Origin: a virus | Taxonomy: Duplodnaviria > Caudoviricetes | IMG/VR virus record: IMGVR_UViG_3300014204_000116 | Location: 32,001-96,000 of that record | Length of the DNA stretch: 64,000 nucleotides | Strand: one strand, 5' to 3' | Part shown: one piece after another, positions 40,412-63,648 of the stretch | Numbering within the stretch: the stretch's first letter is position 1 | Layout of the letters: every line of letters begins with the position of its first letter | Translations under genes and position numbers: made by a program | The notes under the pieces: model-generated | Told to the model about the DNA's origin: nothing | The model's database searches: none | The model's input: only the letters and a program-made list of their open reading frames with translations

Positions 40412-41746
40412 ATGAAAAAGATCTCCTTCCCTCGCCCGATCCCGGTTCCCCTGTACTACCTGAAGCATCCTGCTCTCCGCCAAGTAGGCTGTCCAGTCTG
40501 CCACTCGCATAATGTCGCCATCGATCTGGGCAACACGGCTGTGGTGAAAGGGCCGGTAAAGCATCCGACTCTGGGGCCTATATTGGGCGAAGTATTCTCG
40601 GTGGTATGCCATTGTGCCATGGAGCATTCTTTCGTATTGCGCCTGGCCAACCACCGGAATACCTCTTTGGTGTGGACCGATGTCGCTATCGTTGCCACTT
40701 TACCGGATTCCATGGATGCTATTAAGAATGTCACGATAGATCCTCCCGTTGCCGCTCAGCAGGCATTCGATTTGTCCGCAGGAGGCAATGTGGTCACGGA
40801 TCACATGGACAAGCTGGAAAAGACTGGCATCCTTGGCGACGAAGACAAGGCTCTCTACGACGCGATGCAAAAGCATCAGCCTCCCGCAAAACCTATCGAC
40901 GAGATCCCAGGCAACAGTCTTGACGACGACCTCTACCACGAGGCCAAAGAGCCAGACGAGATGGATCATGAGCCGGAAGAGGGCAAGTGCGCAGAGTGCG
41001 AAGACACGGAGTGTAATAACAACCCGAATAATCCGACCAATCTGACCAATACTTTTCCAGGTGAATCTCCCAACACCGACTATTGCCATGCTGGTCTGTC
41101 TGTCACAGATTCTCTCTACGATATCAAGGAGTTTGGTGGCGTGCAGGATACTTGCATCTGCTGCCCCAACGTCGTATGCCCGGTAAACATGAAGGTCCAG
41201 AAGATGCTTCGCACTCGCAAATACAATCTGGACAGTTGTAACGGCGAGATTGTAACGAAGCCAATTGAGCCGCACGATAGATTTTTCGAGGAACTCCAGG
41301 AGATCCACGAAGAGAGGCTAGACCATTATGAGAAGGCCCTCAAGAGCCAAAGTCTCAATATCCTGCCCAATGTCGCAAAGAGGCTTTTGGCTAACCTGGC
41401 CGAAGTGAATAAGCTGAGCATACCCTCCTTCATAAAGGTCTACAAATTGAGGGAACAACTGGTGAGGGAAGAAGTTGGCTTGCGAACGGTGTTATGCAAG
41501 ATCCTGAGCATGCAGCCCGAAGATCCCATGGATGCACCGGCCTCGGAGGCCAGCCCGCAGCCGAATAAAAAGCTTGCTAATACGAAAAATGTAGACAATA
41601 ATGCTCCCAAGAAAGCACTCGTGCCTGGGTGCCCGGAGAAACTCACGGTGAGCCAGGCCAAGAGCGATCAGTGCCAGAAGTCTTTCTGCAAGGGCTGCGA
41701 GAAGACCAGTTGTCCGGCACATCCCGATCATAAGCCAAAAGTATGA
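40412..41746 (+). CDS. Cys-rich multi-Zn-finger hypothetical protein
   Basis: Several CxxC clusters; ATGA-coupled to the Imm5-like array. Confidence 0.7.
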   Translation: MKKISFPRPIPVPLYYLKHPALRQVGCPVCHSHNVAIDLGNTAVVKGPVKHPTLGPILGEVFSVVCHCAMEHSFVLRLANHRNTSLVWTDVAIVATLPDSMDAIKNVTIDPPVAAQQAFDLSAGGNVVTDHMDKLEKTGILGDEDKALYDAMQKHQPPAKPIDEIPGNSLDDDLYHEAKEPDEMDHEPEEGKCAECEDTECNNNPNNPTNLTNTFPGESPNTDYCHAGLSVTDSLYDIKEFGGVQDTCICCPNVVCPVNMKVQKMLRTRKYNLDSCNGEIVTKPIEPHDRFFEELQEIHEERLDHYEKALKSQSLNILPNVAKRLLANLAEVNKLSIPSFIKVYKLREQLVREEVGLRTVLCKILSMQPEDPMDAPASEASPQPNKKLANTKNVDNNAPKKALVPGCPEKLTVSQAKSDQCQKSFCKGCEKTSCPAHPDHKPKV

Positions 41747-42312
41747 ATAAGACCACGAACAAGCCAAAAACTAAATGGGCACGCGCCAAGCGTCGGGAGG
41801 GGATAAAAGCCTGGAACGAAGTTCCTGCTCCATCCGTCCTTATCGACGTCCTTAGCCAAATCAGCGCTCCCAGGGCAGTCTTTGTGGAGGTCAGCATAGT
41901 TATTGCCGAGGCGGTTCTCCCCAAATTCGAGGCAAAGCTGCCCAAGGACACCCGACCTCGGCGGGCGATAGATACGGCCAAAGCCTGGCTCAAGGACGGG
42001 ACCGTATTGAATGGCGATGATCTTGTTGGGGCTGTCTGGGCTTCTCATTCTGGTCGAGTACTGGCTCGGGATGTTTCTTACGCTGCCTGGACCGCTTACT
42101 ATGCTGCTTGCACCGCCCACGCTGCTGCCGATACCAAGTCTAATGACGCCTATGCCTATGATGCTACGGTCCACTATGCTTCCACTACGGTTTCTCATGC
42201 CATCGACGCAGGCCTTGATTGCCAGCGCGCGATGGGCATCATTAAGAAGATAGGACACAAGCACTTTAAATTCCTGCGCGAGGCTAGCACAAATGAACAA
42301 GCCAAAGGCTAA
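41743..42312 (+). CDS. Imm5-like domain protein, copy 1 (no DPAEF leader)
   Basis: AEAVLPKFE...DTRPRRAIDTAKAWL. Confidence 0.75.
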   Translation: MNKTTNKPKTKWARAKRREGIKAWNEVPAPSVLIDVLSQISAPRAVFVEVSIVIAEAVLPKFEAKLPKDTRPRRAIDTAKAWLKDGTVLNGDDLVGAVWASHSGRVLARDVSYAAWTAYYAACTAHAAADTKSNDAYAYDATVHYASTTVSHAIDAGLDCQRAMGIIKKIGHKHFKFLREASTNEQAKG

Positions 42313-42808
42313 AACCACGGGCCTGACTAAACTCGCTCGGGATCGCATCAAATACCAGGCGGAGATCAAGGCCTGGAACAAAGCTGATACCCTGAGGGAG
42401 GCCATCCACGTCCTTGCGGATATCAAAGCTCCCCAAGCGGCCTTTGTAGAGATCGGCATAGCAGCCGCTGTCGCAGTTCTTCCCGTGTTCGAAAAGAGTC
42501 GCCCCGATGATCCTCGATCTCGCAAGGCAATAGAGGCGCTCAAAGCTTTGCTTAGGCGCGGGACAAAGATCGACGATGCCATTGTTCATGATACTAGTGC
42601 TGCTGCCTGGATTGCTGACCGGAACGCTTCTTATGCGGCCTGGTCTGCTTACTACGCCCTCCAAAGCGCTCAGAGCAAGGATACTTCGGCGTATTATGCT
42701 TACTATGCAGTTTCCCATGCCGTTGGAGCGGGTCTTCGCCACCAGCGAGCAATAAGGATCATCAAGCGAATCGGGCACAAATACTTCGCATTCCTGAGCA
42801 AGCGCTAA
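42293..42808 (+). CDS. Imm5-like domain protein, copy 2 (no DPAEF leader)
   Basis: VLPVFEKSRPDDPRSRKAIEA. Confidence 0.75.
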   Translation: MNKPKAKTTGLTKLARDRIKYQAEIKAWNKADTLREAIHVLADIKAPQAAFVEIGIAAAVAVLPVFEKSRPDDPRSRKAIEALKALLRRGTKIDDAIVHDTSAAAWIADRNASYAAWSAYYALQSAQSKDTSAYYAYYAVSHAVGAGLRHQRAIRIIKRIGHKYFAFLSKR

Positions 42809-42812
42809 GCGA

Positions 42813-43454
42813 ATGAGTGCAAAACTCCAAGCTCTAGACCCTGCCGAATTTGTCCAGTCCTATACCGCAGACAAGTACAAGATGGAGATTGGCGCTTGGG
42901 ACAATGCTACCACTCCGGGGGATCTTCTCTACGCCCTTAAATCTCTCAAAGCTCCCTGCGCAGCCTACGTAGAAATGGGAATAATCATTTCCGAAGAAGC
43001 TCTTTCACAATTTGAGGGTGTGTATCCCAATGATCCTCGGCCTCGACAGGCAGTAGACGCTGCTAAAGCCTGGCTTAAGAATAGAACAGCGGCCAATGAG
43101 GGTGCTCTTAATAAGGCTACCGATAATGCCTACGCTGCTTATAACGCTAAGCTCCAGGCTGCCAGTATCACTTCTGAAACTAGCCGTGCTTGCAAGGGCA
43201 AGGAGGTTCAATTTCGTGCGGCTCAGGCTGCTGCACAGGCCGCTTCTGCTGCACAGGCCGCTTGTAGTGCTTCTTGCCACATATGTGATGCTGATGCCGA
43301 GATTGACTGTGCTTCTTGTGCAGCTTCGGCGACTGCTGGGGTAGCTAACGATGTTGCCCACTATGCCGTCAGGGCAGGTCGCCCCGTTAAAGATGTGATG
43401 GACATCATCAAGGAAGTAGGGCATAGATACTACACGTTTTTGAAGCAGAGCTAA
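42813..43454 (+). CDS. Imm5-like domain protein, copy 3
   Basis: LDPAEFV...PNDPRPRQAVDAAKAWL...GHRYYTFL. Confidence 0.8.
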   Translation: MSAKLQALDPAEFVQSYTADKYKMEIGAWDNATTPGDLLYALKSLKAPCAAYVEMGIIISEEALSQFEGVYPNDPRPRQAVDAAKAWLKNRTAANEGALNKATDNAYAAYNAKLQAASITSETSRACKGKEVQFRAAQAAAQAASAAQAACSASCHICDADAEIDCASCAASATAGVANDVAHYAVRAGRPVKDVMDIIKEVGHRYYTFLKQS

Positions 43455-44006
43455 ATGAACACAACAACCGAGATCACAGTCCCAGCCGAATTTGTTCGAG
43501 CTTTCACGGCGGACAAATACAGGAAAGAGATTGTGACTTGGCATACATCTTCTGCCCCGAGTGATCTTGTCATGGTTCTTAGAAACCTCAAAGCTCCCAG
43601 GGCAGCCTTCGTAGAGATTGGCGTAGCCCTGGCCGAGGGAGTTCTTCCAAAATACGAGAGCAGATATCCAGCAGATCTCCGCCCTCGGAAGACAATAGAC
43701 GCTGCAAAAGCTTGGCTTAGAGATGGATCAACAGCCAATGCTCAGGTTGCTGACAGGGAGACCCAGACTTTCTATATCATCACAAAAGTGGCCGACGCTA
43801 TTAGCTCAAATAATGCTACCATTAGCGCAAATAATGCTGCTTATGCGGCTGCTTGCGCTGCCTGGGTTGTCACTGCTGCCCTCTCTAATGTTTCCGTCGT
43901 TATGGCTGTCACTTACGCCATGAATGCAGGTCTCTCTCACCAATGCGTAATTGATATCATCAAAGAAGTGGGTCAGCGATACTTCGCATTCCTAAAGCAA
44001 GCCTGA
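43455..44006 (+). CDS. Imm5-like domain protein, copy 4
   Basis: Same conserved frame. Confidence 0.8.
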   Translation: MNTTTEITVPAEFVRAFTADKYRKEIVTWHTSSAPSDLVMVLRNLKAPRAAFVEIGVALAEGVLPKYESRYPADLRPRKTIDAAKAWLRDGSTANAQVADRETQTFYIITKVADAISSNNATISANNAAYAAACAAWVVTAALSNVSVVMAVTYAMNAGLSHQCVIDIIKEVGQRYFAFLKQA

Positions 44007-44555
44007 ATGAATGCAATAGCCGAATCTCTAGATCCAGCCGAGTTTGTCCGATCCTACACCACGGACAAATATGGGGAGGAGATTGCAGCCTGGAGCGGGG
44101 CTACTCTTCCCGAGGATCTCATCGACGTCCTTAAGGATCTTAAGGTTCCCCAGATAGCTTATGCAGAGATCAGTGCAGCGCTGTCAGAAGCAGTTCTCCC
44201 CATATTTGAAAAGGAGCATCCCGATGATCCCGAACCTCGGCAAGCCATAGGGATTATCAAATCCTGGCTTAAGGATCAAACAGAAGCCAATGTTCGAGCT
44301 GCTAAGCAACTTTGGGTTTTTCACGCTGCCAATACCTCTTCCGATGCTGCTGTCGATGATCCTGCTGGGGCTGCTGCTTATGCGGCCCATACTGTTCTTT
44401 GTCATGCTATTCTTTCCATCGCTTCTCCTTTTCCTGCTCTATCTGCCCAACGGGCTGCTTTTACAGCCAGCCGGGCGGGCCTCCCTAACCGGCGCGCGAT
44501 GAGCCTGGTAAAAGAAGTGGGCCACAAGTATTTTGCATTTTTGAGCAAGGGCTGA
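44007..44555 (+). CDS. Imm5-like domain protein, copy 5
   Basis: Same conserved frame. Confidence 0.8.
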   Translation: MNAIAESLDPAEFVRSYTTDKYGEEIAAWSGATLPEDLIDVLKDLKVPQIAYAEISAALSEAVLPIFEKEHPDDPEPRQAIGIIKSWLKDQTEANVRAAKQLWVFHAANTSSDAAVDDPAGAAAYAAHTVLCHAILSIASPFPALSAQRAAFTASRAGLPNRRAMSLVKEVGHKYFAFLSKG

Positions 44556-45071
44556 ATGAGCACGACACTCCAAATTGTAGACCCCGCCGAGTTCGTGAAA
44601 GACTTCACGACGGCCAAGTATGCGCGGGAAATCAAGACCTGGAATGATCCCTCTTCTACCCCTAAGAATCTTGCCCATATCCTTCTCGATCTTAAAGCCC
44701 CCACGGCAGCCCTCGCAGAAATTGGTCTAACGTTGGCAGAAGAAGTTCTTCCGGTGTTTGAGAAGAAGTGCCCTAGCGACCCCCGGCCCAGGAAAGCTGT
44801 AAAGGCGGGAAAAGCCTGGCTTAAAGACAGAACGGAAGCTAATTACAATGCTGCTCAAATCAGCTCTTGGGCTGCTGCCGATGCTGCTCGGGCTGCCAGT
44901 GATGCTAATTCAGAAGATGCTTCCAATGCCGCCTGGACTGCCACTCACGCCCTTCACAACATCGAAGTTGCAGTTTTTTACGCGCGCTACGCCGGGCTTC
45001 CCAATCAACGTGCATTCGGCATCATCAAGAAGGTGGGCCACGATTACTTCGCATTCCTGAGTGAGAACTGA
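44556..45071 (+). CDS. Imm5-like domain protein, copy 6
   Basis: Same conserved frame. Confidence 0.8.
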   Translation: MSTTLQIVDPAEFVKDFTTAKYAREIKTWNDPSSTPKNLAHILLDLKAPTAALAEIGLTLAEEVLPVFEKKCPSDPRPRKAVKAGKAWLKDRTEANYNAAQISSWAAADAARAASDANSEDASNAAWTATHALHNIEVAVFYARYAGLPNQRAFGIIKKVGHDYFAFLSEN

Positions 45072-45749
45072 ATGAGTGCAACAACCCGAACTGTAGACCC
45101 TGCTGAATTCGTGAAGTCCTTCATGGAGGACAAGTATAGCAGGGAGATCAAGAACTGGAACGAAGTTTACGCGCCAGAGAGTCTCATCTTTATTCTCAAA
45201 GATCTCAAAGCTCCCCATGTAATCTACGCAGAAATTAGCGTAGCCTTGGCGGAAGAAGTCCTTCCGAGATATGAAGAGAAATACCCCAAAGATCTCCGTC
45301 CCCGACAGGCGATAAAATTCGCCAGAGATTGGCTCAACGATAGGACAATGAACAACGCTGCTTGTGCTGCTTGTGCTGCTGCCGCTGCTGCCGCGCGCGA
45401 GGCTGTTGATGCTGCCAATAGCGATATGTGGGCTGTTAATTCTGATGATTCGAATGATTCTGATGATTTTACGGTCGTTACCCCACAGGCCGTTAATGCT
45501 GCTCGGGCCGCGTATGATGCGGTTTCTTCTGCTGCCTGGGCGGGTGCCCACGTTACTCGGGCAGCTTCCAACATCAATTATGCTTCTCACTACGCGGGCC
45601 ATGCCGCCGATAATGCCGCCAGAGCAGGTCTTTCTGATCAGCGCATAATGGACATCATTAGAGTAATAGGGCATAGGTATTATACGTTTTTGAAGCAAAA
45701 CTATCGACATTACACTTTTGAAGTAAAGACGAATGAGCACAATGACTGA
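45072..45749 (+). CDS. Imm5-like domain protein, copy 7
   Basis: Same conserved frame; longer core and extended C-terminus. Confidence 0.8.
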   Translation: MSATTRTVDPAEFVKSFMEDKYSREIKNWNEVYAPESLIFILKDLKAPHVIYAEISVALAEEVLPRYEEKYPKDLRPRQAIKFARDWLNDRTMNNAACAACAAAAAAAREAVDAANSDMWAVNSDDSNDSDDFTVVTPQAVNAARAAYDAVSSAAWAGAHVTRAASNINYASHYAGHAADNAARAGLSDQRIMDIIRVIGHRYYTFLKQNYRHYTFEVKTNEHND

Positions 45750-46305
45750 GGCTTTAGACCCGGCTACGTTTGTCCAGTCTTACCTGGTGGACAAATATAA
45801 GGCTGAGATTGTAGCCTGGAACGAGGCTCCCTCTCCAAACGCTTTTATCGATATTCTTCGGGATCTCAATGCTTCCAAAGCTGCTTTTGTAGAGATCTGC
45901 GTGGCGTTGGCTGAGGAAGTTCTTCCGGTGTTCGAAAAGGAATTTCCCAAAGATCTCCGCCCTCGGAAAGCAATAGAAGCAGCCAAAGCCTGGCTTAAAG
46001 ATCGAACAGCCGCTAATACCCGAGCTGCTGCTGTTGCTTCTGATGCCGCTTCCAATGCTGCTGTTAATTCTACCGCTATTAAACTTGTTTCTGTTCTTGA
46101 AACTTGGTCTGCTTCTGTCGTTGTCGGTGCTGCTGCTTGGGCTGCCAGCAGAGCTGCTAGTGCTGCTGCTGATACTTCTTATGCTTCTGACTTCACATTT
46201 TGCACCGCTGACGATGCCACTAGAGCAGGTCTTCCTGGGCATCGTATAATGGACATCTTCAGGGAAGTGGGCTACAAGTATTATGCGTTTTTGAAGCCAA
46301 GATGA
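45733..46305 (+). CDS. Imm5-like domain protein, copy 8
   Basis: Same conserved frame. Confidence 0.8.
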   Translation: MSTMTEALDPATFVQSYLVDKYKAEIVAWNEAPSPNAFIDILRDLNASKAAFVEICVALAEEVLPVFEKEFPKDLRPRKAIEAAKAWLKDRTAANTRAAAVASDAASNAAVNSTAIKLVSVLETWSASVVVGAAAWAASRAASAAADTSYASDFTFCTADDATRAGLPGHRIMDIFREVGYKYYAFLKPR

Positions 46306-46851
46306 ATGAGCACAACAACCATAGATCCCTCCGAGTTCGTTAAGTCTTACACTGCGGAAAGGTATAAGGCTGAGATTAAGGCCTGGAACAAAGCCATTAC
46401 TCCAAGTGCTCTCATCAACTTCCTTAGAGCCTTCAAAGCCCCTAAGGCAGTCTTTGTAGAGATCGGCATAGCGCTTGCAGAAGAAGTTCTGCAAGAATTT
46501 GAGAAGAGATGCCCCAAAGATCGCTGTCCTCATCGAGCAATAAAAGCTGCCAAAGCTTGGCTTAACAATAGAACGGAAGCTAATGCCCAAGCGGCCCGCG
46601 TTAGGGCTACGGAGGTTTACGAAATTTCTTGGGCTTGTGCTACTTCTAATGACGCTGTTAGCAGTACTTATGCCGCTCGTACTGCGGCTTGGGCTGCCCA
46701 CGCTGCTGAAGCGGAGACTCCTGTTGATGCCGCGTACAATACTGACAACGCGCTCGCTTATGCCCTGGCGGCAGATCTTCCTCCCGTACGCGCGCTTGAC
46801 ATCATCAAGGAAGTAGGATATAGATATTATACATTTTTGAAACAGAATTGA
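46306..46851 (+). CDS. Imm5-like domain protein, copy 9
   Basis: Same conserved frame. Confidence 0.8.
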   Translation: MSTTTIDPSEFVKSYTAERYKAEIKAWNKAITPSALINFLRAFKAPKAVFVEIGIALAEEVLQEFEKRCPKDRCPHRAIKAAKAWLNNRTEANAQAARVRATEVYEISWACATSNDAVSSTYAARTAAWAAHAAEAETPVDAAYNTDNALAYALAADLPPVRALDIIKEVGYRYYTFLKQN

Positions 46852-46865
46852 TCGAATATGGCCGG

Positions 46866-47405
46866 ATGAGCACGACAACCGAAATTGTAGACCCCGCTGA
46901 ATTTGTCCAGTCCTTTACTGCGGCCAAATATCAGAGAGTGGTAGACGCCTGGAGCAATACTCTTTCTCCAGGATGTTTTATCAACGCTTTGGCATCCGCC
47001 AAAGCCCCCAAGGCAGTCTATGTAGAGATCTGCCTGGCGTTCGCAGACGAAATTCTGTCGGTGTTTGAAGAGAAGCACCCTGAAGACTTCCGCCCTCGAA
47101 GGGCAGTAGAAGCAGCCAGGGCCTGGCTTGAGAATAGAACCACTGCTAACGAAGAAGCTGCGCGCAAAGCTGCTGGGGAGGCTTCTCTCGTGGCTTTTAT
47201 CTATTGCGACGACAACACCACTCGTGCTGCTACCTGGGCTACCTGGGCTACCGCTAATACCGCTGGGGCCACGTTTTCTTACGCTGCCTATAATGCTGTC
47301 CAAGCCGTTATCTACGCTATTGGAGCCGGTATTCCTCAACAGCATCTCATGGATATCATTCGGGATGTGGTCCATAGATACTACGCATTTTTGAGCCTGT
47401 GTTAA
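46866..47405 (+). CDS. Imm5-like domain protein, copy 10
   Basis: The MSTTTEIVDPAEF start matches the paralogues. Confidence 0.8.
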   Translation: MSTTTEIVDPAEFVQSFTAAKYQRVVDAWSNTLSPGCFINALASAKAPKAVYVEICLAFADEILSVFEEKHPEDFRPRRAVEAARAWLENRTTANEEAARKAAGEASLVAFIYCDDNTTRAATWATWATANTAGATFSYAAYNAVQAVIYAIGAGIPQQHLMDIIRDVVHRYYAFLSLC

Positions 47406-47996
47406 ATGAGTGCGACCGCTGAAACTTTAGATCCTGCTACATTCGTTCAGTCTTATATTGTGACCAAGTATAAGAAGGAGATCGAAGCCTGGGGCAAATC
47501 TGCCATTCCAGAAGAACTCATTAGCATTCTTAAAGACCTCAGGGCTCCCAAGGCAGCTTTTGCAGAGATCAGCATAATTCTTGCAGAAGGCATTCTTCCT
47601 GCAATTGAATTAAGGCATCCTGGAGATCTCCGCCCACGTAGGGCGTTAGAAGCTGCAAAAGTCTACTTTAATAAAGATACCGAAGATAATGCTAAAGCCG
47701 TTACCGAAGCTATCGACCACGCATTTAAAGCCGAAGCCGAAGCTACCGGCCATGCTGAATCTGCTGCTGCTGCCTACGCTATTTGTTATGCTGCTCGTGC
47801 CTCTTGTGCCCGCAATATTGAGGAAGCGTCTAATAATGCTGCTTGGACTGCTTATTATGCCACGGCAACATTCCGCATAAAAGCATCCTATGACGCTGTT
47901 GAGGCGACTTCTGCGGTCCTTAACCAGCAGCATATACTGGATGTCATAAGGAAAGTGGGCCGCAAACATTTTGCATTCTTAAACAAGGCCAAATGA
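47406..47996 (+). CDS. Imm5-like domain protein, copy 11
   Basis: Same conserved frame. Confidence 0.8.
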   Translation: MSATAETLDPATFVQSYIVTKYKKEIEAWGKSAIPEELISILKDLRAPKAAFAEISIILAEGILPAIELRHPGDLRPRRALEAAKVYFNKDTEDNAKAVTEAIDHAFKAEAEATGHAESAAAAYAICYAARASCARNIEEASNNAAWTAYYATATFRIKASYDAVEATSAVLNQQHILDVIRKVGRKHFAFLNKAK

Positions 47997-48631
47997 GCAC
48001 GCTAACCGAAACTTTAAATCCTGCCGAGTTCGTTCAGTCCTATACCCTGCAAAAATATCGGAGGGAGATCGAGGCCTGGGGAAAAGCCGCTACTCCAGGT
48101 GATCTCATCAATGTTCTCAGAATCATCGGCGCTCCGAAAGCCACCTATGTGGAGATCAGCATAGCTCTTGCCGAAGAAGTTCTCCCTGTGTTTGAAAAGG
48201 AATGTCCTCAAGATCCCCGTCCTCGGCAAGCCGTAGAAGCGGCCAAAGCTTGGCTTGTGGGCGGGACACAGGCTAATGTTGAGGCTTCTGCAAAAAGTGC
48301 TGAGGGGGCTTTTAATGCTGTTTGGAATATTAACGCGCTTATGGCAGGGGAGGCCAGGTATGCCGGTCGTGTTGCCTACTGCGCTGCTTATGCTGCTGCT
48401 TATCCTGTGAGTAATGCTGATCAAGCTGCTGTCACTTTCGCTATTGCCTACGCTGTTACCACTTCCGTAGGATATGCCTCTTACACCGCTGCCTGCGCTG
48501 ATCAATCTGCCCAGGCGGCTTATAGTGCTGCTTATTATGCCGTTGAAGCAGGCTTTTCTAATCGTCTTGCGGTGGATATCGTTAGAAGGGTGGGCTGTAG
48601 GTATTTTGCATTCTTGAGGAAAACCAAATGA
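47993..48631 (+). CDS. Imm5-like domain protein, copy 12
   Basis: Same conserved frame. Confidence 0.8.
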   Translation: MSTLTETLNPAEFVQSYTLQKYRREIEAWGKAATPGDLINVLRIIGAPKATYVEISIALAEEVLPVFEKECPQDPRPRQAVEAAKAWLVGGTQANVEASAKSAEGAFNAVWNINALMAGEARYAGRVAYCAAYAAAYPVSNADQAAVTFAIAYAVTTSVGYASYTAACADQSAQAAYSAAYYAVEAGFSNRLAVDIVRRVGCRYFAFLRKTK

Positions 48632-54684: not shown

Positions 54685-57600
54685 ATGAAGTGTCGGATCA
54701 AAGACTGCCACGGTTACGTGGCTCCCCACGCAACTGAGGAGTCGCGCGTACACGATCTTTGCCCGGCTCATTCCGAGGGCCTTTTAATGACGGCGGAGGA
54801 AGTTGTAGACGAAGCTTTAGACCCTGCCGAGTTCGTTAAATCCTTCACAGCAGCCAAGTACAGGGATCAGATCAGGCGTTGGGACAAAGCTTCCACCGTG
54901 GGGGAGGTCATCGAGATATTGCAACATCTCCGCGCGCCAAAACGAACTTATGCAGAAATCAGCATAGCCCTTGCCGAAAAAGTTCTTCCGGTGTTCGAAA
55001 AGGAATTTCCCAAAGATCTTCGCCCCCGGCAGGCAGTAGAGGCTACCAAAGCCTGTCTTAAGGACCAGACGCCAGCAGTTGTTCAAGCGGCGGTTAATGC
55101 CGCTAATGGTGCTAACGATGCTTCTATCGCTTCCACTATGCACGCTGCTGCTTCCAACGCTGCTTCGGCTGCTTCCAACGCTGCTTGGACTGGTGCTGAC
55201 GGTGCTGACGGTGCTGGCGTTGGTGGAGCTATGTGGGCTGCCGTTGATACTGCCAACACTGCTGCTTATGCTATTAACGCGGGCCTTACCAAGCAGCATG
55301 CGTTGAACATCATCCAGGAAATTGGTGAGAAATACTTTTCGTTTTTGGCCCAATGGGTCAGGAATCCCAAGGCTGAAAAGGTAGCGGAAGCCGACGAAAC
55401 TTTAGATCCTGCCAAATTCGTTAAGTCTTACACCACGACTAAATATAAAAATGAGATTGAGCGCTGGAACAAAGTTTCCACCACAGGGGATGCCCTCGCA
55501 ATACTGCAATTTCTCCGCGCTCCGAAGGTAGCTTACACAGAAATTAGCATAACACTAGCGGAAGAAGTTCTTCCGAAGTTCGAAAAGAAGTATCCTAAAG
55601 ATCTCCGCCCTCGGAAAGCTATAGAGGCTGCCAAAGCTTGGACTAAGAGTCAAACGTCAGCAAATGTTCAAGCGGCTACTTTTGCTGCCGATGCTGCTTA
55701 CAACGCTTCCGTCGCTACCTTCGCCAATGCTGCAATGGCCGCTTCTAATGCAGCATTGGCTGCTTCCAATGCTGCTGCTCAGGCTGGCGCTGATACTACT
55801 GAACGGGCTGCTATCAATGCTGCCAATGCCGCTTATAACGCTATTAGTGCAGGTCTTACCAAGCAGCACGCGTTGGGTGTCATTAAGGGAATTGGTGAGA
55901 AATACTTTTCGTTTTTGATTCGAGGCTGGGGTAAGCACACGTCTGAAAAGGTGGCGGAAGCCGACGAAACTTTAGATCCTGCTGAGTTTGTTCAGTCCTT
56001 TACTGTGGCCAAATACAAGGATGAGATTGAGCGTTGGACCAAATCTCCTACTGTGGGGACTCTTATCGGCGTCCTTAAAGCCATCAAAACCTCCAAGGCA
56101 GTCTTTGTCGAGATCGGGATAGCTATTGCCGAAGAGGCTCTCTCGGTGTTCGAAAATAAGCACCCCGGAGATCTCCAAGATCTTCGCCCTCGGAAAGCTT
56201 TGGAAATAGCTAAAGCCTGGCTTAAGGATCAAACGGAAGCTAATGCTCAGGCTGCTCAGCATGTAGCTTATGAGATTTACGACGCTTATGTTGATTATGG
56301 CACTAACGCTGTTGCTTATGCCGCCCAAGCTGCTGCTTATCCTAAAGCTGCGGGCAGCTATGTCACTTATGCTGCTAGTTCCGCTATTAAGGCAGGCATT
56401 CCTTCTCAGCGATTAGTGGATATTATTCGAGAAATAGGGCATAAGCATTTTGGATTCCTACCCCAAGGATCGGGTGAAACAGCAGCAGAGCCAGTTGTAG
56501 ACGAAGCTCTCGATCCTTCCGAGTTTGTTCAGTCCTATACCACAGACAAGTATAAGAAGGAGATCAAGACTTGGAATAAAAATAGTACTCCAGGGAGCCT
56601 CATTGACGTCCTCAAAGCTCTCAAAGCCCCCAAGACAGCCTACGTAGAAATAGGGGTAATTCTTGCAGAAGAAGTTCTTCCGGTGTTCGAAAAGGAGTTC
56701 CCTAAAGATCTCCGCCCTCGGAAAGCTATAGAGGCCACAAGAGCCTGGCTTAAAGACAGTTCATTAGTTGCTGGCGATGTTGCCGCTGGAGCTATTAAGG
56801 CTGCCGATGAAATTGAAGCTTTTAATAAGGGCGACAGTAACTTTAAGGTCTGGAATACTCACGCCAAGGCCACTCATGCTGCTAAAGTGGCTGCCTTTGC
56901 TGCTTGGTCCGCCTTTGCCTCTTCTAACGTAGGCTTGGCAATTTCTAGCGCGCATTACGCCACTATTGATGCCATAGGCGCGGGCCTCACCAGCCAGCAC
57001 GCGATGGATGTCGTTAGGGAAGTTGGCGGGAGATACTTTTCGTTCTTAACTCAAGGATCGAGTAAAAAGGTAACAAAGGCAGTTGTAGACGAAGCTCTAG
57101 ATCCTGCTGAGTTCGTTCAGTCTTATAATCTGGCCAGGCACAGGAAAGAGATCGAGACCTGGGGAAAAGTTTACAGTCCGATGGCTCTTATTAACGTACT
57201 GCACACTCTCAAAGCTCCCCAGGCAGCCTTTGTACAAATTAGTATAGCCCTGGCCGAAGAAGCTCTTCCGAAATTTGAAAAGAAATATCCTAAAGATCTA
57301 CGACCTCGGAAAGCCATAGAAGCGGCTAAAGCCTGGCTTAAGGACGGAACAACGGCCAATGCTGACGCTGCTGAAGCCGCTGGTAAAGAAGCCATGGCGG
57401 CTGTTGCTATGACTAATCGTAGTAGTAGTCCTTACATGGCTTCTCGGGCCGCTGCTCGGGCCGCTGCTCAAGCCGCTTACATCACTTGCGTTTCTCCCAC
57501 TAGCGACCATGTTTACGCTTACGCGGATGCCACTGCCCTACACTCGGGTAAAGCGGGTGTACCCAAGCAACGTGCGATGGATATCATCCGGGAAGTGGGG

Positions 57601-60600
57601 CACGCATATTTTGGGTTCTTAGCCCAGGGATCAAGTAAAAAGGTAGCGGAAGCCGATGAGACTTTGGACTCTGCCGAGTTCGTTAAGTCCTACACTACGA
57701 CTAAGTATCAAAAGGAGATCGAAGCCTGGAATAAGGCTACTACTCCTGATGCTCTTACCAGCGTCCTTAAGTCTCTTAAAGCTCCGAAGGCAGCCCGTGT
57801 AGAAATCAGTGCAGCTCTCGCGGGAGAAGTTCTTTCGGTGTTCGAAAATACATACCCAGGAGATCTCCGCCCTCGGAAAGCAATAAAAGCTGCCAAAGCC
57901 TGGCTCCAGGATAAGACAACAGCCAATGCCCTGCTGGCTGACGCTGCCGCTGACGCTGCCGATGAAGCTGCCTGGACTGCTTACTATGCTGCTTGCGCTG
58001 CCCAAGCTGATGTCGATGATGGCAGGCCTTCTTGTGCCGCTCATGCCGCTTGGGCTGCCTGGAGTGCCGCTCAGACGGCTACATACAACGTTGTTAACGA
58101 TGCCCACGATGCAGCTAATTATGCCTTAAAGGCGGGTCTTTCTAACCAGCGCATAATGGACATCGTCAAGGATATAGGTGAAGGATACTTTTCGTTCTTA
58201 ATCCCAGGCCAGCCCGGTAAAGTAGTCGAAGCTGGTGAAGCTTTAGATCCGTCCGAGTTCGTTAAGTCTTACCATACGAGCAAGTACAAAAATGAGATAA
58301 AGGCCTGGGGCACCGCCACCGCTCCAAACACTCTGATCGACATTCTCGAACGTCTCAAAGCTTCCAAGAATGCCTACACGGCGGTAAGCGCAGCACTCGC
58401 CGAAGAAGTTCTTCCTGCATTCGAGAAGAGATATCCTGCCGATCCTCGGCCTCGACAGGCAGTAGAAGCTGCCAAAGATTGGCTTGAAGGCAAGATAGTA
58501 AATAACGCTAATGCTGCCGCTCGTGCTGCCAGTGCTGCCTCCGATGCTCGGGCCACCGCCTATGATCGTCTCCCTGGCGTCGATAGAGATGCCGATGCCG
58601 CTGCTTACGCTGCTGCTTACGCCGCTGGTTCTACCACTGGTTCTGCCTACGGTGCTTACAACGCTGTTTATTACGCTGTTATGGCAGGCCTCCCCCAGTC
58701 GCGTGCCGTGGTTATTATCAAGGAAGTGGGCGAGAAATACTTTTCGTTCTTAGGTAGGGGTCCAAGTGAAGGCGTGGCTGAAGTGATTGTGACAAATTTG
58801 CTGGATGAAGTCTTAGATCCAGCCGAATTTGTCCGGTCCTATACCACGGCCAAATATCAGAAGGAGATCGCGGAATGGAACAAATCTACCACTCCAGAGG
58901 CTCTTCTCTACGCCCTTAAATCTCTCAAAGCTCCGAGAGAAATTTTTGTAGAAATTTGTCTGGCATTTGCAGAAGAAGCTCTTCCGATATTCGAAAGTAA
59001 GTTCCCTGAGGATCTCCGCCCACGTAAGGCTATAAAAGCCACCAAGGCTTGGCTTAGGAATAGGACAGTGGAAAATGCTCGTAAGGCTGACCGGGCTGCT
59101 TATGCCTCCGACGAGGCTGCCTCGGCTGCTATTAAGGCCTCGGCCTACGCTGCTGTTGCTTCTGCTGCTGCTCATGCTGCTTCTCGCGCGGCTTGGAGTG
59201 TTAATTCTGCACACGATGTTTTTATTGGCTTTGTCGGGAATACTACTTCGGCTGCCACCTGTGCTACTGAAGCAGGCATCTCTAACCAGCGCGCCATGGA
59301 CATCGTTAGGGAAGTAGGCCACAGATACTTTTCGTTTTTAGACCAGGGCTCCACAGAGGGCGTGGCTGAGGCAATCGTAACAAATTTGCTGGATGAGACT
59401 TTAGACCCTGCCGAGTTCGTTAAGTCTTACACCACGACCAAATATCAGGACGAGATCGAGGACTGGAATAGGGCTATTACTCCGAAGGGTCTTATTGACA
59501 CCCTTACAACTATCAGAGTTCCAGGGGCAGTTTTCGTAGAGATTAGCATAGCTCTCGCAGAAAAGACTCTTCCGGCATTCGAAAGGACGCACCCAAAAGA
59601 GCTTAAGCCACGGAAAACTTTGGAAGCAGCTAAAGCTTGGCTTAAAAACAGGACAAGTGCCAATGCCCGTGTTGCTCGTGCTGCTGCTGATGAAGTCGCC
59701 ATTGGCATATCCGCTGCTAACGGTGCTCGGGCTGCCGCGTGGGCGGCTTACGGCGCTGCTTTTCCTGAGTCTGCCTCTCTTTTTACTGCATATGCCGTTG
59801 GTGACGCCGTTCACGGGGGCCTTACCAACGGTCAGGTGATGGACATCGTCAGGGAAATCGGCCATAGATACTTTTCGTTCTTAGCTCGGGGCTCGGGTGA
59901 AACTAATGAAGCCCTGGACCCCTCCGAGTTTGTCCGGTCCTACAACGCGACCAAATACCGCGAAGAAATAATAGACTGGACTAGTACTTCTACCCCAAAG
60001 GGTCTCATCTTTATTCTCAAGACTCTCAATGCTCCCAAAGCAGCCTTTGTCGAGATTGGCATAGCCCTTGCAGAGGAAGCTCTTCCGATATTTGAAAAGG
60101 AGTTCCCCGAGGATCTTCGCCCTCGGAAAGCTTTGGAAATAGCTAAAGCCTGGCTTAAGGATCAAACGGAAGCTAATGCTCAGGCTGCTGCTGATGCGGC
60201 GGCTGCCGCCTCTACGACCTGGTGGTCTTCCGATGCTACTGCCTATGCCCGTAATAATGCTGCTAGTGCTGTCTACGAGGTTCTTTGGATAGTTGGGACT
60301 GATACCACGAGCAGAGTTGTGGCCACTGCTAATGTGGCTTATTATGCCACTAAAGCAGGCCTTCTCCCTCAGCGCGTGTTTGACGTCGTTAGAAAAATCG
60401 GTGAGAAATACTTCTCGTTCTTAGGCCCGGACACGGATGTAAATGTAGTGGAAGCCAGCGAAGCTTTAGATCCTGCTGAGTTTGTCCAGTCCTATACCCT
60501 GGACAAATATAGGGATAAGATTGAAATTTGGAACAAGTCTACTAACGAAAAGGATCTCCTCTATGTCCTTAGGGATATTGGGGCTCCCAAGACAGCCTAC

Positions 60601-63600
60601 GTAGAAATTGGCCTAGCTTGCGCAGAAGGAGTTCTTCCGGCATTCGAAAAGAAATACCCCGGAGAACTTCGTCCCCGACAAGCGCTAGAAGCTTTAAGAA
60701 CTTGGCTTAAAGACCCATCGCCAGCTAATGCCCACGCTGTTAAGGCTGCTGCTCAGGCCGCTGACGCTGCTGCTCAATTGGCTGCTGTTGACGCTGCTAA
60801 AGCTGAGGACGCCGCTGAAGCTGCTGAAGCTGCGGGTGGTTACTACACCACAGATCACGATATTGACAGAGCTTCTTGGGCTGCCAATGCAGCAGCCAAT
60901 GCTGCCTGGATTATCGGTGTTGTTTATACAGCGCTTGATGCCATTGGCACTGTCTATTACGCCACTAAAGCAGGCCTTCCCCTCCAGCGTGCATTGGATA
61001 TTGTCAGAGGAGTGGGTGCGAAATACTTCTCGTTCTTAGGCCAGGGGCCGAGTGAAAAGGTGGCGGAAGCCCACGAAATGTTAGATCCTTCTGAGTTTGT
61101 TAAGTATTACCACCGGGGCAAATACAGGGAAGAGATTGGGGCTTGGAACGAAACTGACAATCCAGAGATTCTTGTTGCTGTTCTCCGGGCTCTCAATGTT
61201 CCGAAAGTGGCTTATGCAGAGATCAGCGTAGCACTCGCTGAAAAAGTTCTTCCTGTATTCGAGAAGAGGTATCCTAATGATCCTCGGCCTCGACAGGCGG
61301 TAGAAGCTGCCAAAACTTGGCTTGGAGCTAGAACAGTGGCCAATGCCGAGGCTGCGGAAAAAGCTATTGTCGCTGTCTATGCAATTGCTCACATAACCAG
61401 TGCTTCTGCTTCTGTTATTTTTTACGCTGCCCGAGTCGTTCGTAATGCCAAAACTGATCTGGGTGTTGGTAGCACTTCTGCTTATGTTGCCGCCTCTGAA
61501 GCTGCTGGCTACGCCGCTCACTATGCCGTTAAAGCAGGCATTTTCACACAGGAGGTCATAGGCATAATTAAGGAAGTGGGGCACAAGTATTTTTCATTTT
61601 TAGGCCAGGGAACAACCGAGGGCATGTCCGAAGCGATTGTAACAGGTTTGCTAGGTGAAACTTTAGATCCTTCTGAGTTTGTTAAGTCTTACACCCTGAG
61701 CAAATACCAGGTAGAGATTGAAGTTTGGAACAAAGCGTCTATTCCAAAAGATCTTACCGGCGTATTGCAACGTCTTAAAGCTCCCAAAGCTGCCTACGTA
61801 GAGTTTGGCATAGCCGTTGCCGAAGAAGTTCTATCGGTATTCGAGAAGAGGTATCCTAATGATCCTCGGCCTCGTCAGGCAATAGAGGCTGCCAAAACTT
61901 GGCTTAACGACCAAACGGAGGCTAATGCTCTTGCGGCTCGTGCTATTGCTCTTGCCGCTTCTGACGAAGATGTTTCTGATCGGCCTGCCTGCTCTGCTCA
62001 TGCTGCCGCTAATGTCGCTTGGTCTGCTGCCTCTTATTCTGCTTACATTATCTATTCCCTGTATGCTATGGCTGATGCAGCCAGGGTAGGCCTTCCCAGG
62101 CAGCGCATAATGGACATTGGCAGGGAAATAGGCCATAAATACTTTTCATTCTTAGGCCAGGGCACGGATGCAAATGTAACGGAAGCCCTCGATGCTTTAG
62201 ATCCTTCTGCATTCTTTCAATCCTACACGCTGGCCAAATACAAGAAGGACATTAAAGATTGGGGTAAAGCTACGACTTCAGAGGATTTTATCCGTGTCCT
62301 CCATAATATCAATGCTCCCAAGGCAGCTTTTGTAGAGATAGGAATAGCGTGCTCAGAAGAATTACTTCCGATGTTTGAGAAGAACCACCCAGGAAAGGAT
62401 CAACCTCGGAACGCGGTAGAAGCGGCCAAAGCTTGGCTCAAGAACCAGACAACAGCTAATGCCAAAGCTGCCCGTTTTGCAGCAGTTGAGGCTCGGGAAT
62501 TTGCTTCCGATAGCTGGGCGACTGATGCTATGGCTGCTTGTGTCGCTTCGGCTGCTTCTGAAGCCGCTGCTGCCGCTGCTCATGCTCCTACTCCTTCTGC
62601 TTCTGGCCCTAGCTACTCTGCTGTTGCTGCCGGGGGTTCTATCTACTATGCCATGAGGGTCGGTCTTTCTTCCCAGAGCGCAGCCAATATCGTTAAGGAA
62701 GTGGGAAAGAGATATATCTGGTTCTTGAACCAAGATGGGATAAGCAGCGTGGCTGAAACAGCCGTGGCCAACTTGCTGGACGAAGCCTTAGATCCTGCCG
62801 AGTTTGTTAAGTCCTACACCCTTGACAAATACAGCGATGAGATTGAAACGTGGAACAAAGCTACCACTACAACGGCTCTTATCAACGTATTGAAATCTCT
62901 TAAATCTCCTGGTGCAGCCTTCGTAGAGATTAGTGCAGCTCTCGCAGAAGAAGTCCTCCCGGTATTTGAAAAAGCGGCACCTAATGATCTCCGGCCTCGG
63001 AAAGCTGTAGAGGTCGCAAAAGACTGGCTTAAGGGCAGGGCAACAGGTGATGCCGATGCTCTCAGTGGCGCTGCTCTGGCCGCTTACGAGGTTCTTACCA
63101 GAGCTGCGACTGCGGCTTTTGATATTGAGTCTACCTGGGCCGCTGTTCAAGCCGCCGATCAGGCCGCTGCCGCTGCTCGGGCTGCTGCTTGGACCGCTAA
63201 CGTTGTAAGCAACAACAACATTAATGCCGATGCCAGGGACGTGGCTAACGTGGTTTTTTATTCTGTCAGGGCAGGCCTCCATAACCGGCACGTGATGAGC
63301 ATCGTCAAGAAGGTGGGCGAGAAATACTTTTCGTTCTTAAGCCGGGGCTCGAAAAAAAGGCAGCCAAAAGCCACTCCAGGCAAGTTGCCCGAAGATAACG
63401 CCGATCAGTCCATACTCTATCATTTGGCAGACGTGGCTAAGTATTCTGACAGGTGGCATGCTTACGTATTAAATTCTGCCGGGGAAAAGATCTATTTGAC
63501 GCCAGACAGCACGCTTACTAAAGATCCAATCCTGTGGACGACGCAACAGCGCGCGCGGGTGATAGGTAGCCATTACTGGCAAAGTGTACAGTGGGAGCGC

Positions 63601-63648
63601 GTTCCCTATGATATCGCAAAGTCCAGCGAAGAAAGTGGTGGGGTGTAA
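54685..63648 (+). CDS. Polyprotein of 15 tandem Imm5-like domains plus a unique C-terminal domain
   Basis: 15 units of the form E(A/T)LDP(A/S)EFV.S...DLRPR.A.EAAKAWL...GxKYFSFL, joined by acidic linkers. Confidence 0.9.
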   Translation: MKCRIKDCHGYVAPHATEESRVHDLCPAHSEGLLMTAEEVVDEALDPAEFVKSFTAAKYRDQIRRWDKASTVGEVIEILQHLRAPKRTYAEISIALAEKVLPVFEKEFPKDLRPRQAVEATKACLKDQTPAVVQAAVNAANGANDASIASTMHAAASNAASAASNAAWTGADGADGAGVGGAMWAAVDTANTAAYAINAGLTKQHALNIIQEIGEKYFSFLAQWVRNPKAEKVAEADETLDPAKFVKSYTTTKYKNEIERWNKVSTTGDALAILQFLRAPKVAYTEISITLAEEVLPKFEKKYPKDLRPRKAIEAAKAWTKSQTSANVQAATFAADAAYNASVATFANAAMAASNAALAASNAAAQAGADTTERAAINAANAAYNAISAGLTKQHALGVIKGIGEKYFSFLIRGWGKHTSEKVAEADETLDPAEFVQSFTVAKYKDEIERWTKSPTVGTLIGVLKAIKTSKAVFVEIGIAIAEEALSVFENKHPGDLQDLRPRKALEIAKAWLKDQTEANAQAAQHVAYEIYDAYVDYGTNAVAYAAQAAAYPKAAGSYVTYAASSAIKAGIPSQRLVDIIREIGHKHFGFLPQGSGETAAEPVVDEALDPSEFVQSYTTDKYKKEIKTWNKNSTPGSLIDVLKALKAPKTAYVEIGVILAEEVLPVFEKEFPKDLRPRKAIEATRAWLKDSSLVAGDVAAGAIKAADEIEAFNKGDSNFKVWNTHAKATHAAKVAAFAAWSAFASSNVGLAISSAHYATIDAIGAGLTSQHAMDVVREVGGRYFSFLTQGSSKKVTKAVVDEALDPAEFVQSYNLARHRKEIETWGKVYSPMALINVLHTLKAPQAAFVQISIALAEEALPKFEKKYPKDLRPRKAIEAAKAWLKDGTTANADAAEAAGKEAMAAVAMTNRSSSPYMASRAAARAAAQAAYITCVSPTSDHVYAYADATALHSGKAGVPKQRAMDIIREVGHAYFGFLAQGSSKKVAEADETLDSAEFVKSYTTTKYQKEIEAWNKATTPDALTSVLKSLKAPKAARVEISAALAGEVLSVFENTYPGDLRPRKAIKAAKAWLQDKTTANALLADAAADAADEAAWTAYYAACAAQADVDDGRPSCAAHAAWAAWSAAQTATYNVVNDAHDAANYALKAGLSNQRIMDIVKDIGEGYFSFLIPGQPGKVVEAGEALDPSEFVKSYHTSKYKNEIKAWGTATAPNTLIDILERLKASKNAYTAVSAALAEEVLPAFEKRYPADPRPRQAVEAAKDWLEGKIVNNANAAARAASAASDARATAYDRLPGVDRDADAAAYAAAYAAGSTTGSAYGAYNAVYYAVMAGLPQSRAVVIIKEVGEKYFSFLGRGPSEGVAEVIVTNLLDEVLDPAEFVRSYTTAKYQKEIAEWNKSTTPEALLYALKSLKAPREIFVEICLAFAEEALPIFESKFPEDLRPRKAIKATKAWLRNRTVENARKADRAAYASDEAASAAIKASAYAAVASAAAHAASRAAWSVNSAHDVFIGFVGNTTSAATCATEAGISNQRAMDIVREVGHRYFSFLDQGSTEGVAEAIVTNLLDETLDPAEFVKSYTTTKYQDEIEDWNRAITPKGLIDTLTTIRVPGAVFVEISIALAEKTLPAFERTHPKELKPRKTLEAAKAWLKNRTSANARVARAAADEVAIGISAANGARAAAWAAYGAAFPESASLFTAYAVGDAVHGGLTNGQVMDIVREIGHRYFSFLARGSGETNEALDPSEFVRSYNATKYREEIIDWTSTSTPKGLIFILKTLNAPKAAFVEIGIALAEEALPIFEKEFPEDLRPRKALEIAKAWLKDQTEANAQAAADAAAAASTTWWSSDATAYARNNAASAVYEVLWIVGTDTTSRVVATANVAYYATKAGLLPQRVFDVVRKIGEKYFSFLGPDTDVNVVEASEALDPAEFVQSYTLDKYRDKIEIWNKSTNEKDLLYVLRDIGAPKTAYVEIGLACAEGVLPAFEKKYPGELRPRQALEALRTWLKDPSPANAHAVKAAAQAADAAAQLAAVDAAKAEDAAEAAEAAGGYYTTDHDIDRASWAANAAANAAWIIGVVYTALDAIGTVYYATKAGLPLQRALDIVRGVGAKYFSFLGQGPSEKVAEAHEMLDPSEFVKYYHRGKYREEIGAWNETDNPEILVAVLRALNVPKVAYAEISVALAEKVLPVFEKRYPNDPRPRQAVEAAKTWLGARTVANAEAAEKAIVAVYAIAHITSASASVIFYAARVVRNAKTDLGVGSTSAYVAASEAAGYAAHYAVKAGIFTQEVIGIIKEVGHKYFSFLGQGTTEGMSEAIVTGLLGETLDPSEFVKSYTLSKYQVEIEVWNKASIPKDLTGVLQRLKAPKAAYVEFGIAVAEEVLSVFEKRYPNDPRPRQAIEAAKTWLNDQTEANALAARAIALAASDEDVSDRPACSAHAAANVAWSAASYSAYIIYSLYAMADAARVGLPRQRIMDIGREIGHKYFSFLGQGTDANVTEALDALDPSAFFQSYTLAKYKKDIKDWGKATTSEDFIRVLHNINAPKAAFVEIGIACSEELLPMFEKNHPGKDQPRNAVEAAKAWLKNQTTANAKAARFAAVEAREFASDSWATDAMAACVASAASEAAAAAAHAPTPSASGPSYSAVAAGGSIYYAMRVGLSSQSAANIVKEVGKRYIWFLNQDGISSVAETAVANLLDEALDPAEFVKSYTLDKYSDEIETWNKATTTTALINVLKSLKSPGAAFVEISAALAEEVLPVFEKAAPNDLRPRKAVEVAKDWLKGRATGDADALSGAALAAYEVLTRAATAAFDIESTWAAVQAADQAAAAARAAAWTANVVSNNNINADARDVANVVFYSVRAGLHNRHVMSIVKKVGEKYFSFLSRGSKKRQPKATPGKLPEDNADQSILYHLADVAKYSDRWHAYVLNSAGEKIYLTPDSTLTKDPILWTTQQRARVIGSHYWQSVQWERVPYDIAKSSEESGGV

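Follow-up and report, generated by a model that had tools for sequence, protein, structure and literature searches.

What does a phage gain from encoding one small domain dozens of times, both as a row of separate genes and as the repeating unit of giant proteins? The question is raised by a 64,000-nucleotide stretch of DNA (the window), which comprises bases 32001-96000 of the 159,890-bp IMG/VR virus record IMGVR_UViG_3300014204_000116 (Duplodnaviria; Caudoviricetes); feature coordinates are window positions unless 'genome' is stated. A first-pass annotation, made from the letters alone, had described 29 Imm5-like domains, 14 of them as separate genes (41743-49816) and 15 fused in one open reading frame (ORF; 54685-63648). 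The ORF listing and the translations bear out both blocks, and the count rises to at least 33, with four more units in an ORF of 1434 amino acids (aa) outside the window. The repertoire thus spans ~19.3 kb and consists of 14 separate genes and of 15 and 4 units in two polyproteins. We propose, on evidence that we judge to be about evenly balanced, that it represents a lineage-specific set of Imm5-like binder modules in a T4-type jumbo phage, part of which is made in the infected cell and part of which is loaded into the capsid as tag-linked, cleavable polyproteins.

The Imm5-like units and their genes

Two single genes scored over the curated gathering cut-off of 25 bits for the Pfam family Imm5_like (PF21805), with E values of 1.8e-8 and 3.6e-6 (34.7 and 27.3 bits), and another gene reached 22.3 bits; residues 1-1000 of polyprotein 1, the product of the fused ORF, yielded 102.4 bits (E 2.2e-29). 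A profile hidden Markov model (HMM) scan of the whole record returned 31 matches, of which 25 exceeded the cut-off; this confirms the family assignment of the first-pass annotation. Matches to Imm5 (PF14423) were weaker, and in PHROGs the units fall in an unnamed family. An alignment of all 33 units (A1) makes visible the architecture that had been described for the smaller set: a conserved N-terminal part of ~100 residues, a core that varies in length from 45 to 88 residues and cannot be aligned with confidence, and a conserved C-terminal helix, with W29, L42, F186 and L187 as invariant residues. Each unit has a mass of ~19 kDa; the isoelectric points (pI) range from 5.1 to 10.1.

An AlphaFold2 model of array gene 8, computed with A1 as input, is a nine-helix bundle with a mean predicted local distance difference test score (pLDDT) of 94.7. 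The variable region runs from the middle of helix 6 through helix 7 into the beginning of helix 8 and forms a helical hairpin in the model, in agreement with the constant scaffold and variable region postulated earlier. This Ala-rich hairpin is the likely binding surface, as judged from the predicted fold. In an exhaustive structure search, the best solved match was chain B of PDB entry 7JTU (7jtu_B; Z 11.6, root mean square deviation 3.1 Å over 148 residues; next DUF416, Z 9.9), a likeness that is suggestive only, given the Z values for helical bundles. Foldseek against the PDB returned the same chain at a probability of 0.96 and nothing at E <= 1e-3, and the A1 profile gave nothing significant against PDB sequences and did not recover it; the best viral structure match was an 'Imm-5-like domain-containing protein'. 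Chain 7jtu_B is SsdAI, the immunity protein of the type VI single-stranded DNA deaminase toxin SsdA; it is all-alpha, and a protrusion enters the SsdA active site and blocks it (PMC7901873). The match agrees with published work that links Imm5 to toxins of the CdiA-CT and DYW-type deaminase kinds (Zhang et al. 2012, PMC3482391).

The array comprises 14 genes on the same (plus) strand that encode proteins of 171-225 aa. It opens with two genes whose products have basic, divergent N-termini (gene 1, 41743-42312, 189 aa; gene 2, 42293-42808, 171 aa). Gene 3 (42813-43454, 213 aa) has a core of 88 residues and gene 7 (45072-45749, 225 aa) one of 85, among the longest; between them lie genes 4 (43455-44006, 183 aa), 5 (44007-44555, 182 aa) and 6 (44556-45071, 171 aa). 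The modelled gene 8 (45733-46305, 190 aa) is followed by gene 9 (46306-46851, 181 aa) and by gene 10 (46848-47405), which measures 185 aa when counted from a TTG, an ATG six codons downstream being the likelier start. Genes 11 (47406-47996, 196 aa), 12 (47993-48631, 212 aa), 13 (48628-49215, 195 aa) and 14 (49229-49816, 195 aa) complete the row. At the junctions, genes abut as TAAATG or TGAATG or else overlap by 4 to 20 bases, and gene 1 overlaps the stop codon of the upstream 444-aa gene. A scan of the array found no promoter or terminator signals exceeding those in shuffles, and no Shine-Dalgarno-like sequence precedes any array gene or polyprotein 1 (window 41700-54700), which may mean that the host does not depend on such signals. 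The layout is that of a single translationally coupled operon.

Polyprotein 1 (54685-63648, plus strand, 2987 aa) is composed of a Cys/His-containing leader of 43 residues (54685-54813), which ends in V-D-E directly before the first unit, 15 units and a C-terminal domain of 102 aa (63340-63645). Delimited by an LDP[AS]EF start motif and a terminal ...FL motif, the units are P1 (54814-55347), P2 (55399-55917), P3 (55969-56460), P4 (56506-57048), P5 (57094-57621), P6 (57661-58200), P7 (58240-58752), P8 (58810-59340), P9 (59398-59883), P10 (59911-60423), P11 (60463-61038), P12 (61078-61602), P13 (61660-62154), P14 (62194-62727) and P15 (62785-63339), all on the plus strand. The C-terminal domain matched no family in Pfam or PHROGs, and no homologue of it was found among proteins of 56-179 aa. 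A whole-record Imm5_like scan revealed polyprotein 2 (genome 119009-123313, 1434 aa), in which four units stand between an N-domain of ~430 residues and a C-domain of ~230 residues. For the N-domain, a feature search of the ESM Atlas gave no usable match; in the ESM Atlas shape search, all matches had a template modelling (TM) score below 0.5. In the gene upstream of polyprotein 1 (53397-54434, 345 aa), NESEL pentapeptides are encoded at the start by a perfect tandem repeat of 15 nt (5.1 copies, 53398-53474).

The record is a 160-kb portion of a 226-kb genome. By walking outward from proteins at both record ends we reached an ENA assembly of the same phage (contig ERZ27247350 k141_2050970, 225,968 bp), which is 100% identical to the record over overlaps of 14.2, 11.7 and 21.6 kb (~47 kb in total). 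About 50 kb of the genome lie outside the stretches that were read, so the 33 units are a lower bound. The 2987-aa ORF is 100% identical in this independent assembly, and one Joint Genome Institute (JGI) assembly that breaks the ORF differs only by single-base deletions in short homopolymers; the ORF is therefore genuine and not an assembly artefact. Profile scans identified terminase, sheath, gp23 and gp21 genes in this virus. The gene of the large terminase (genome 137325-141665; L005 1325-5662; 1446 aa) carries two intein-type insertions, one with Hint and LAGLIDADG domains and the other with an intein splicing domain and HNH.

Protease, linker sites and a shared tag

Just upstream of the 5' end of the record, the ENA contig encodes a 563-aa protein (L096 1683-3374) whose N-terminal part matches Peptidase_S77, the family of the T4 prohead protease gp21 (PF03420, E 1.2e-16). 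A gp23-type major capsid gene follows (L096 3422-4876; Gp23, E 2e-27). The scan of the 160-kb record contained no PF03420 match, and the family is present only in the longer ENA assembly. The protease is fused to a C-terminal region of ~370 residues that is coiled-coil and scaffold-like in appearance.

T4 gp21 cleaves after Glu in L/I-x-E, and phiKZ-type enzymes cleave in S/A-x-E (PMC9026906). An aliphatic-x-Glu triplet ([A/V/L/T]-x-E) precedes 18 of the 19 polyprotein units, and the next residue is Ala, Thr, Val or Met; when the tag described below that stands before the polyprotein 2 C-domain is included, the P3 position of the site is occupied by Leu (6), Ala (6), Val (5) and Thr (1). Most linkers hold an additional V/M-x-E a few residues upstream, and the capsid protein has L-D-E-V nine residues ahead of its Pfam domain. 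The array proteins begin 5-7 residues ahead of the predicted post-cleavage start of a unit, and in A1 a Glu is retained at the corresponding position in six of these proteins. By their sequences, the linker sites fit the Glu-ending motif of maturation proteases. A two-unit model, for which 17 neighbouring pairs served as input, consists of two separate bundles joined by a linker with a pLDDT of 30-42 and without secondary structure (predicted TM score 0.48); the linker is thus predicted to be exposed, with the units arranged like beads on a string. The first-pass annotation had called the polyprotein cleavable, and to the extent that its linkers suit a Glu-specific prohead protease and that a gp21-family enzyme occurs in the complete assembly, the proposal appears sound.

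Five inter-unit linkers and the stretch before the polyprotein 2 C-domain share a second feature, a tag of the form hydrophobic-V-x-x-L-L-x-E. Long linkers with the tag separate P7 from P8 (58753-58809; …VAE-VIVTNLLDE, with predicted disorder), P8 from P9 (59341-59397), P12 from P13 (61603-61659) and P14 from P15 (62728-62784). In its strict form the tag occurs 14 times in the ORFs of the genome, compared with 0.85 ± 0.88 times in shuffles, and a looser form occurs seven times within the first 40 residues of proteins, compared with 1.7 expected. The strict tag stands at residues 6-8 of five unrelated proteins, of which two are encoded near the terminase, one directly downstream of polyprotein 1 and one directly upstream of polyprotein 2; the looser tag heads the product of the gene directly after polyprotein 2. 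Overall, it lies within residues 1-8 of at least six other proteins and is internal in the polyproteins. The gene after polyprotein 1 (63654-64000, plus strand, continuing beyond the window) encodes a 521-aa protein with the N-terminal tag …AEHIVGTLIGE. Counted with Glu or Asp at the end, the tag was seen in a dozen unrelated proteins, at N-termini, at a few C-termini or between domains; examples in the window are at 12603-12650, 32752-32800 and 63654-63700. The array proteins carry no tag and are therefore probably made and used within the infected cell.

In T4, N-terminal capsid-targeting sequences of 10-19 residues bring the internal proteins into the head and are then cut off by gp21; among these proteins is IPI*, which is injected and inhibits a host restriction enzyme (PMC9026906). 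Polyprotein cleavage and packaging would be the most economical reading of the protease, the sites, the tag, the linker model, and the other tagged cargo and the relatives described below.

A further protein of the window (14222-15997, 591 aa) contains a 2H-phosphoesterase or Acb1-like domain, of the type that counters the cyclic oligonucleotide-based anti-phage signalling system, at residues ~328-434, and has two tag-like stretches at residues ~251-285, ahead of this domain. Acb1 is a counter-defence fold. By sequence, the protein may be a capsid-delivered counter-defence enzyme.

Age, divergence and distribution of the units

The first-pass annotation had spoken of a diversified repertoire, and the copies are deeply diverged. 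The mean pairwise proportion of synonymous differences (pS) is 0.64 in the frame and 0.62 in the core, with a lowest frame value of 0.45; because synonymous differences are near saturation, the copies must be regarded as old. The pairwise differences among units gave no indication of recent duplication or gene conversion. The proportion of nonsynonymous differences (pN) is higher in the core (0.52) than in the frame (0.30), and all 33 units are intact. These values point to purifying selection on the frame. For the core, they are compatible with either relaxation or diversification: a comparison of nonsynonymous and synonymous rates (dN/dS) between core and frame, proposed with the first-pass annotation, separates no diversifying signal from relaxed constraint, given the nearly saturated pS and the unreliable alignment of the cores. 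In a maximum-likelihood tree the units form a star with tips of ~0.9 changes per site and two well-supported pairs; array and polyprotein units separate weakly, and the order of duplication is not resolved.

The cores bear the marks of repeat turnover. Ala accounts for 34.8% of their residues, and GCT for 60% of the Ala codons, compared with 24% in other genes. They contain many short in-frame tandem repeats with periods of 9, 12, 18 or 21 that are based on GCT-GCT-NNN and have decayed. The Ala residues are spaced by 3, 4 and 7, as on a single helix face, and Tyr, Trp, Ser, Thr, Asp and Asn occupy other positions.

Ongoing diversification, by contrast, finds no support. Three other assemblies are 99.98-100% identical to the record, two of them over 21.5 kb across polyprotein 1 and the third over 5 kb, and the differences, one substitution and single-base homopolymer deletions, all lie in one assembly. 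Because of this identity over the compared parts, the repertoire appears to be diversified but now static. The possibility that retroelement- or slippage-driven hypervariation alters the cores in each generation is the least probable of those we considered: the 160-kb record (of the 226-kb genome) contains no match to the reverse transcriptase family RVT_1, the core repeats are short and decayed, the assemblies agree as just described, and the cores differ in length, unlike what is expected of a target of a diversity-generating retroelement.

Relatives of polyprotein 2 illuminate how the tag is used. Its closest orthologue (P0151, 657 aa; L088 10001-11974, Logan SRR10566890), encoded on a syntenic 26.9-kb contig and flanked by the same small tagged genes, consists of the N-domain (51% identity), the tag and the C-domain (36% identity) and contains no units. 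Three further relatives have the same layout, and an HExxH peptidase motif is joined to one relative of the N-domain. The 238-kb phage G006 encodes the C-domain on its own, as a 221-aa protein that carries at its head a version of the tag peculiar to G006 (x-I-L-x-H-L-L-E-D, then acidic residues); this version recurs on at least five G006 proteins. Because the tag precedes the C-domain in relatives, whether fused or separate, it behaves in these sequences as a portable address ahead of cargo domains, and the four units appear to have been inserted just before the tagged C-domain in the present phage. If this reading is right, tag-plus-cargo modules have been swapped between lineages within the jumbo phage clade.

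The head itself is widely shared. Relatives of the capsid protein occur on 71 IMG/VR contigs, most of them at 60-91% identity. No Imm5-like unit was found in any of 14 long capsid-related phage records (70-85% capsid identity), five of which are at least 90% complete (211-238 kb), so that the comparison of related phages suggested with the first-pass annotation disclosed no identical arrays there. As a positive control, the same search recovered one to three copies in each of five other jumbo records. G006 has counterparts for only 65 of 205 ORFs, none of them at positions 65-100 kb in the record. Because the units are absent from capsid-related phages and few ORFs are shared with G006, the repertoire and most tagged genes present themselves as accessory cargo that is specific to the lineage, in a clade whose head is conserved. 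For the 444-aa and 521-aa genes that flank the repertoire, neither IMG/VR nor five near-complete related phages yielded a relative. Two paralogous pairs in the late region (genome 144898-145425 and 146127-146582, 175 and 151 aa; 149541-150809 and 150811-152004, 422 and 397 aa) are kept in G006, and lineage-specific tagged genes sit between them.

The family as a whole is common. The A1 profile matched 6,044 cluster representatives (50% identity) at E <= 1e-3 among 1.84 billion. In IMG/VR, most Imm5-like proteins (140-250 aa) are products of solitary genes in phages of ~40 kb; arrays of three to five are occasional, and there are some fusions. Proteins with two to four units are common. An unrelated protein of 3069 aa (L087 10001-19210; NCBI GCA_004196255.1, a 618,894-bp contig) combines 12 distant units, connected by conserved proline-rich linkers, with an N-terminal ParB-like motif and a NUDIX domain; its surroundings are phage-like, with small unannotated genes, sigma factors and a TnpB gene nearby. 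Among INPHARED phages, neither megablast with positions 30000-54000 nor tblastn with the polyprotein and one unit found a match, and tblastn with a typical small-phage homologue found a single weak one, in an archaeal virus.

Known systems and competing explanations

With the Imm5_like and Imm5 families (PF21805 and PF14423; PMC3482391) the phage units share the score over the HMM cut-off, an all-alpha fold and the AE..L..FE / P.D.RPR motif region. They differ in belonging to a lytic-type jumbo phage, in an extra conserved N-terminal extension of ~45 residues and in their number (33 copies), some being fused via protease-type linkers. The adjoining or paired toxin gene that characterizes polymorphic-toxin immunity genes was not seen, and no toxin domain was detected among neighbour genes in Pfam and PHROG scans, which covered part of the genome; bacterial polyimmunity loci are likewise described without adjacent toxins (PMC3482391). 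These scans of flanking and tagged proteins identified IMPDH, NUDIX, Acb1/2H, Laminin_G_3, the intein-bearing terminase and the sheath and no other families. SsdAI, whose structure matches best and over almost all of the unit and which is likewise all-alpha, neutralizes its toxin by direct binding (PMC7901873), but sequence identity is only 10%, the likeness of fold is predicted, and no deaminase partner was found among the phage neighbours scanned.

Homogeneous polyimmunity loci (PMC3482391) share with the array tandem same-strand paralogues, minimal spacing, the absence of an intervening toxin and the existence of fused multi-domain forms; such loci comprise at least four paralogues, and the array 14. 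Such loci reside on bacterial chromosomes and guard the cell against non-kin toxins, whereas the present carrier is a phage; its genome combines array and fused formats, which according to that paper tend not to co-occur. Unlike the polyimmunity proteins described there, the phage chain contains 15 units of one family separated by linkers that resemble maturation-protease sites. The T4 internal proteins IPI, IPII, IPIII and Alt (PMC9026906) offer a parallel in the gp21-family protease, the gp23-type capsid protein, the variable, non-core cargo and the short hydrophobic tag ending in Glu at the N-termini of accessory proteins. In the present phage, however, the tag sequence differs, the tag also lies between polyprotein domains, from which one precursor would yield many cargo proteins, and packaging is a prediction. 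The giant, multidomain polyvalent proteins (Iyer et al. 2017, PMC5512222) are believed to be packaged and to be delivered together with the DNA. Polyprotein 2 is similar to them in combining units with two unrelated domains, but polyvalent proteins combine different enzymatic domains, whereas polyprotein 1 is homopolymeric and built from a single diversified domain that is not enzymatic; scans of the flanking and tagged proteins with Pfam and PHROGs found no polyvalent-associated domain.

In the reading we favour, a repertoire partly made in the cell and partly packaged, the hairpins would have diversified long ago through turnover of short in-frame GCT-GCT-NNN repeats and point mutation and would have been static since. 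Fourteen modules would be produced in the infected cell from one operon. The tag would bring the polyproteins into the prohead core in the manner of the T4 capsid-targeting sequences, the gp21-type protease would cleave after Glu to release monomers resembling the array proteins, and these would be ejected with the DNA, so that neutralizers were present ahead of any phage gene expression; we infer that this is the most likely course of tag import, cleavage and ejection. By analogy with SsdAI, each module would block one toxin-like effector by binding, candidates being interbacterial toxins that hit the infected cell and host proteins of abortive infection or defence; judged by family, the targets could be deaminase-type or CdiA-CT-type toxins. 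A fuller scenario, in which the capsid carries ~19 ready-made neutralizers that are cut by the maturation protease and injected for immediate broad protection, with 14 more expressed later from the operon, is put forward tentatively, as possible but on balance doubtful.

Several observations weigh against packaging and neutralization. T4 capsid-targeting sequences are N-terminal, but polyprotein 1 starts with its 43-residue Cys/His leader in place of a clean tag and has most of its tags internally. Of the 19 Glu sites (18 before units and one in the polyprotein 2 C-domain tag), 12 have Ala, Val or Thr at P3, compared with Leu/Ile in T4; aliphatic-x-Glu triplets are common in any case, and some lie inside units. 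At 320 kDa the polyprotein would be a large cargo. As to function, a Z value below about 13 for helical bundles can reflect a common helix arrangement only, the Pfam 'immunity' label of Imm5_like is itself a prediction, and the near-neutral pN/pS of the core may reflect mere relaxed constraint.

In one rival explanation the polyproteins are made after infection, like the array proteins, and work in the cytoplasm without being cut, as polyvalent 'polyimmunity proteins'; their linkers would be flexible spacers only, and the shared motif would have some other role. Bacterial polyimmunity proteins with up to 10 domains have been described (PMC3482391), and Imm5-like proteins elsewhere contain 2-12 units joined by different, unrelated linkers without a sign of cleavage, a point that also tells against the packaged form. 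We consider this explanation unlikely, if the strongest of the rivals: it does not account for a long linker that equals the tag heading unrelated proteins and preceding cargo domains in relatives, for the Glu-specific protease family encoded by the phage, or for the resemblance of the predicted cut products to the free-standing array genes. A structural role, with the units serving as scaffold, inner-body or head-filling protein that is chopped by the prohead protease and binds nothing, seems rather improbable. T4 scaffold and core proteins are indeed helical and cleaved at many L/I-x-E sites (PMC9026906), and tags also occur in genes among conserved late genes. Such a role is hard to reconcile with the lack of units in the 14 records with the same capsid protein type, with a family found mostly as single small genes in ~40-kb phages, with the mixed charge of the units, with 14 copies that lack the tag, or with the scaffold-like coiled-coil region already fused to the protease. 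Finally, repeat-prone genes might have been amplified neutrally or selfishly into copies without function, as the repeat-derived cores and a core pN near pS would allow; intact reading frames in all copies despite saturated synonymous sites, a frame pN far under its pS and the conservation of the linker motifs make this very improbable.

Taken together, these comparisons show that the first-pass description as a candidate new system was too strong, as polyimmunity loci and proteins and T4 capsid-targeted internal proteins are already known kinds; so are the Imm5-like family, gp21 processing and phage polyvalent proteins. The novelty lies in the number of units (33), in the homopolymeric polyprotein whose linkers consist of the phage's own tag and protease sites, in the comparative evidence for insertion of units at the tag within a conserved two-domain protein, and in the lineage-specific gain of the repertoire. 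If our reading is correct, phages can possess a counterpart of the bacterial polyimmunity locus, to which this one would devote ~8.5% of a 226-kb genome. The T4-type system of capsid targeting and proteolysis would then be usable combinatorially, with one precursor giving rise to many cargoes, which would be of interest for engineered protein delivery by phages. In addition, 33 natural variants on one scaffold would provide a tractable entry to the targets of the widespread, uncharacterized Imm5-like family.

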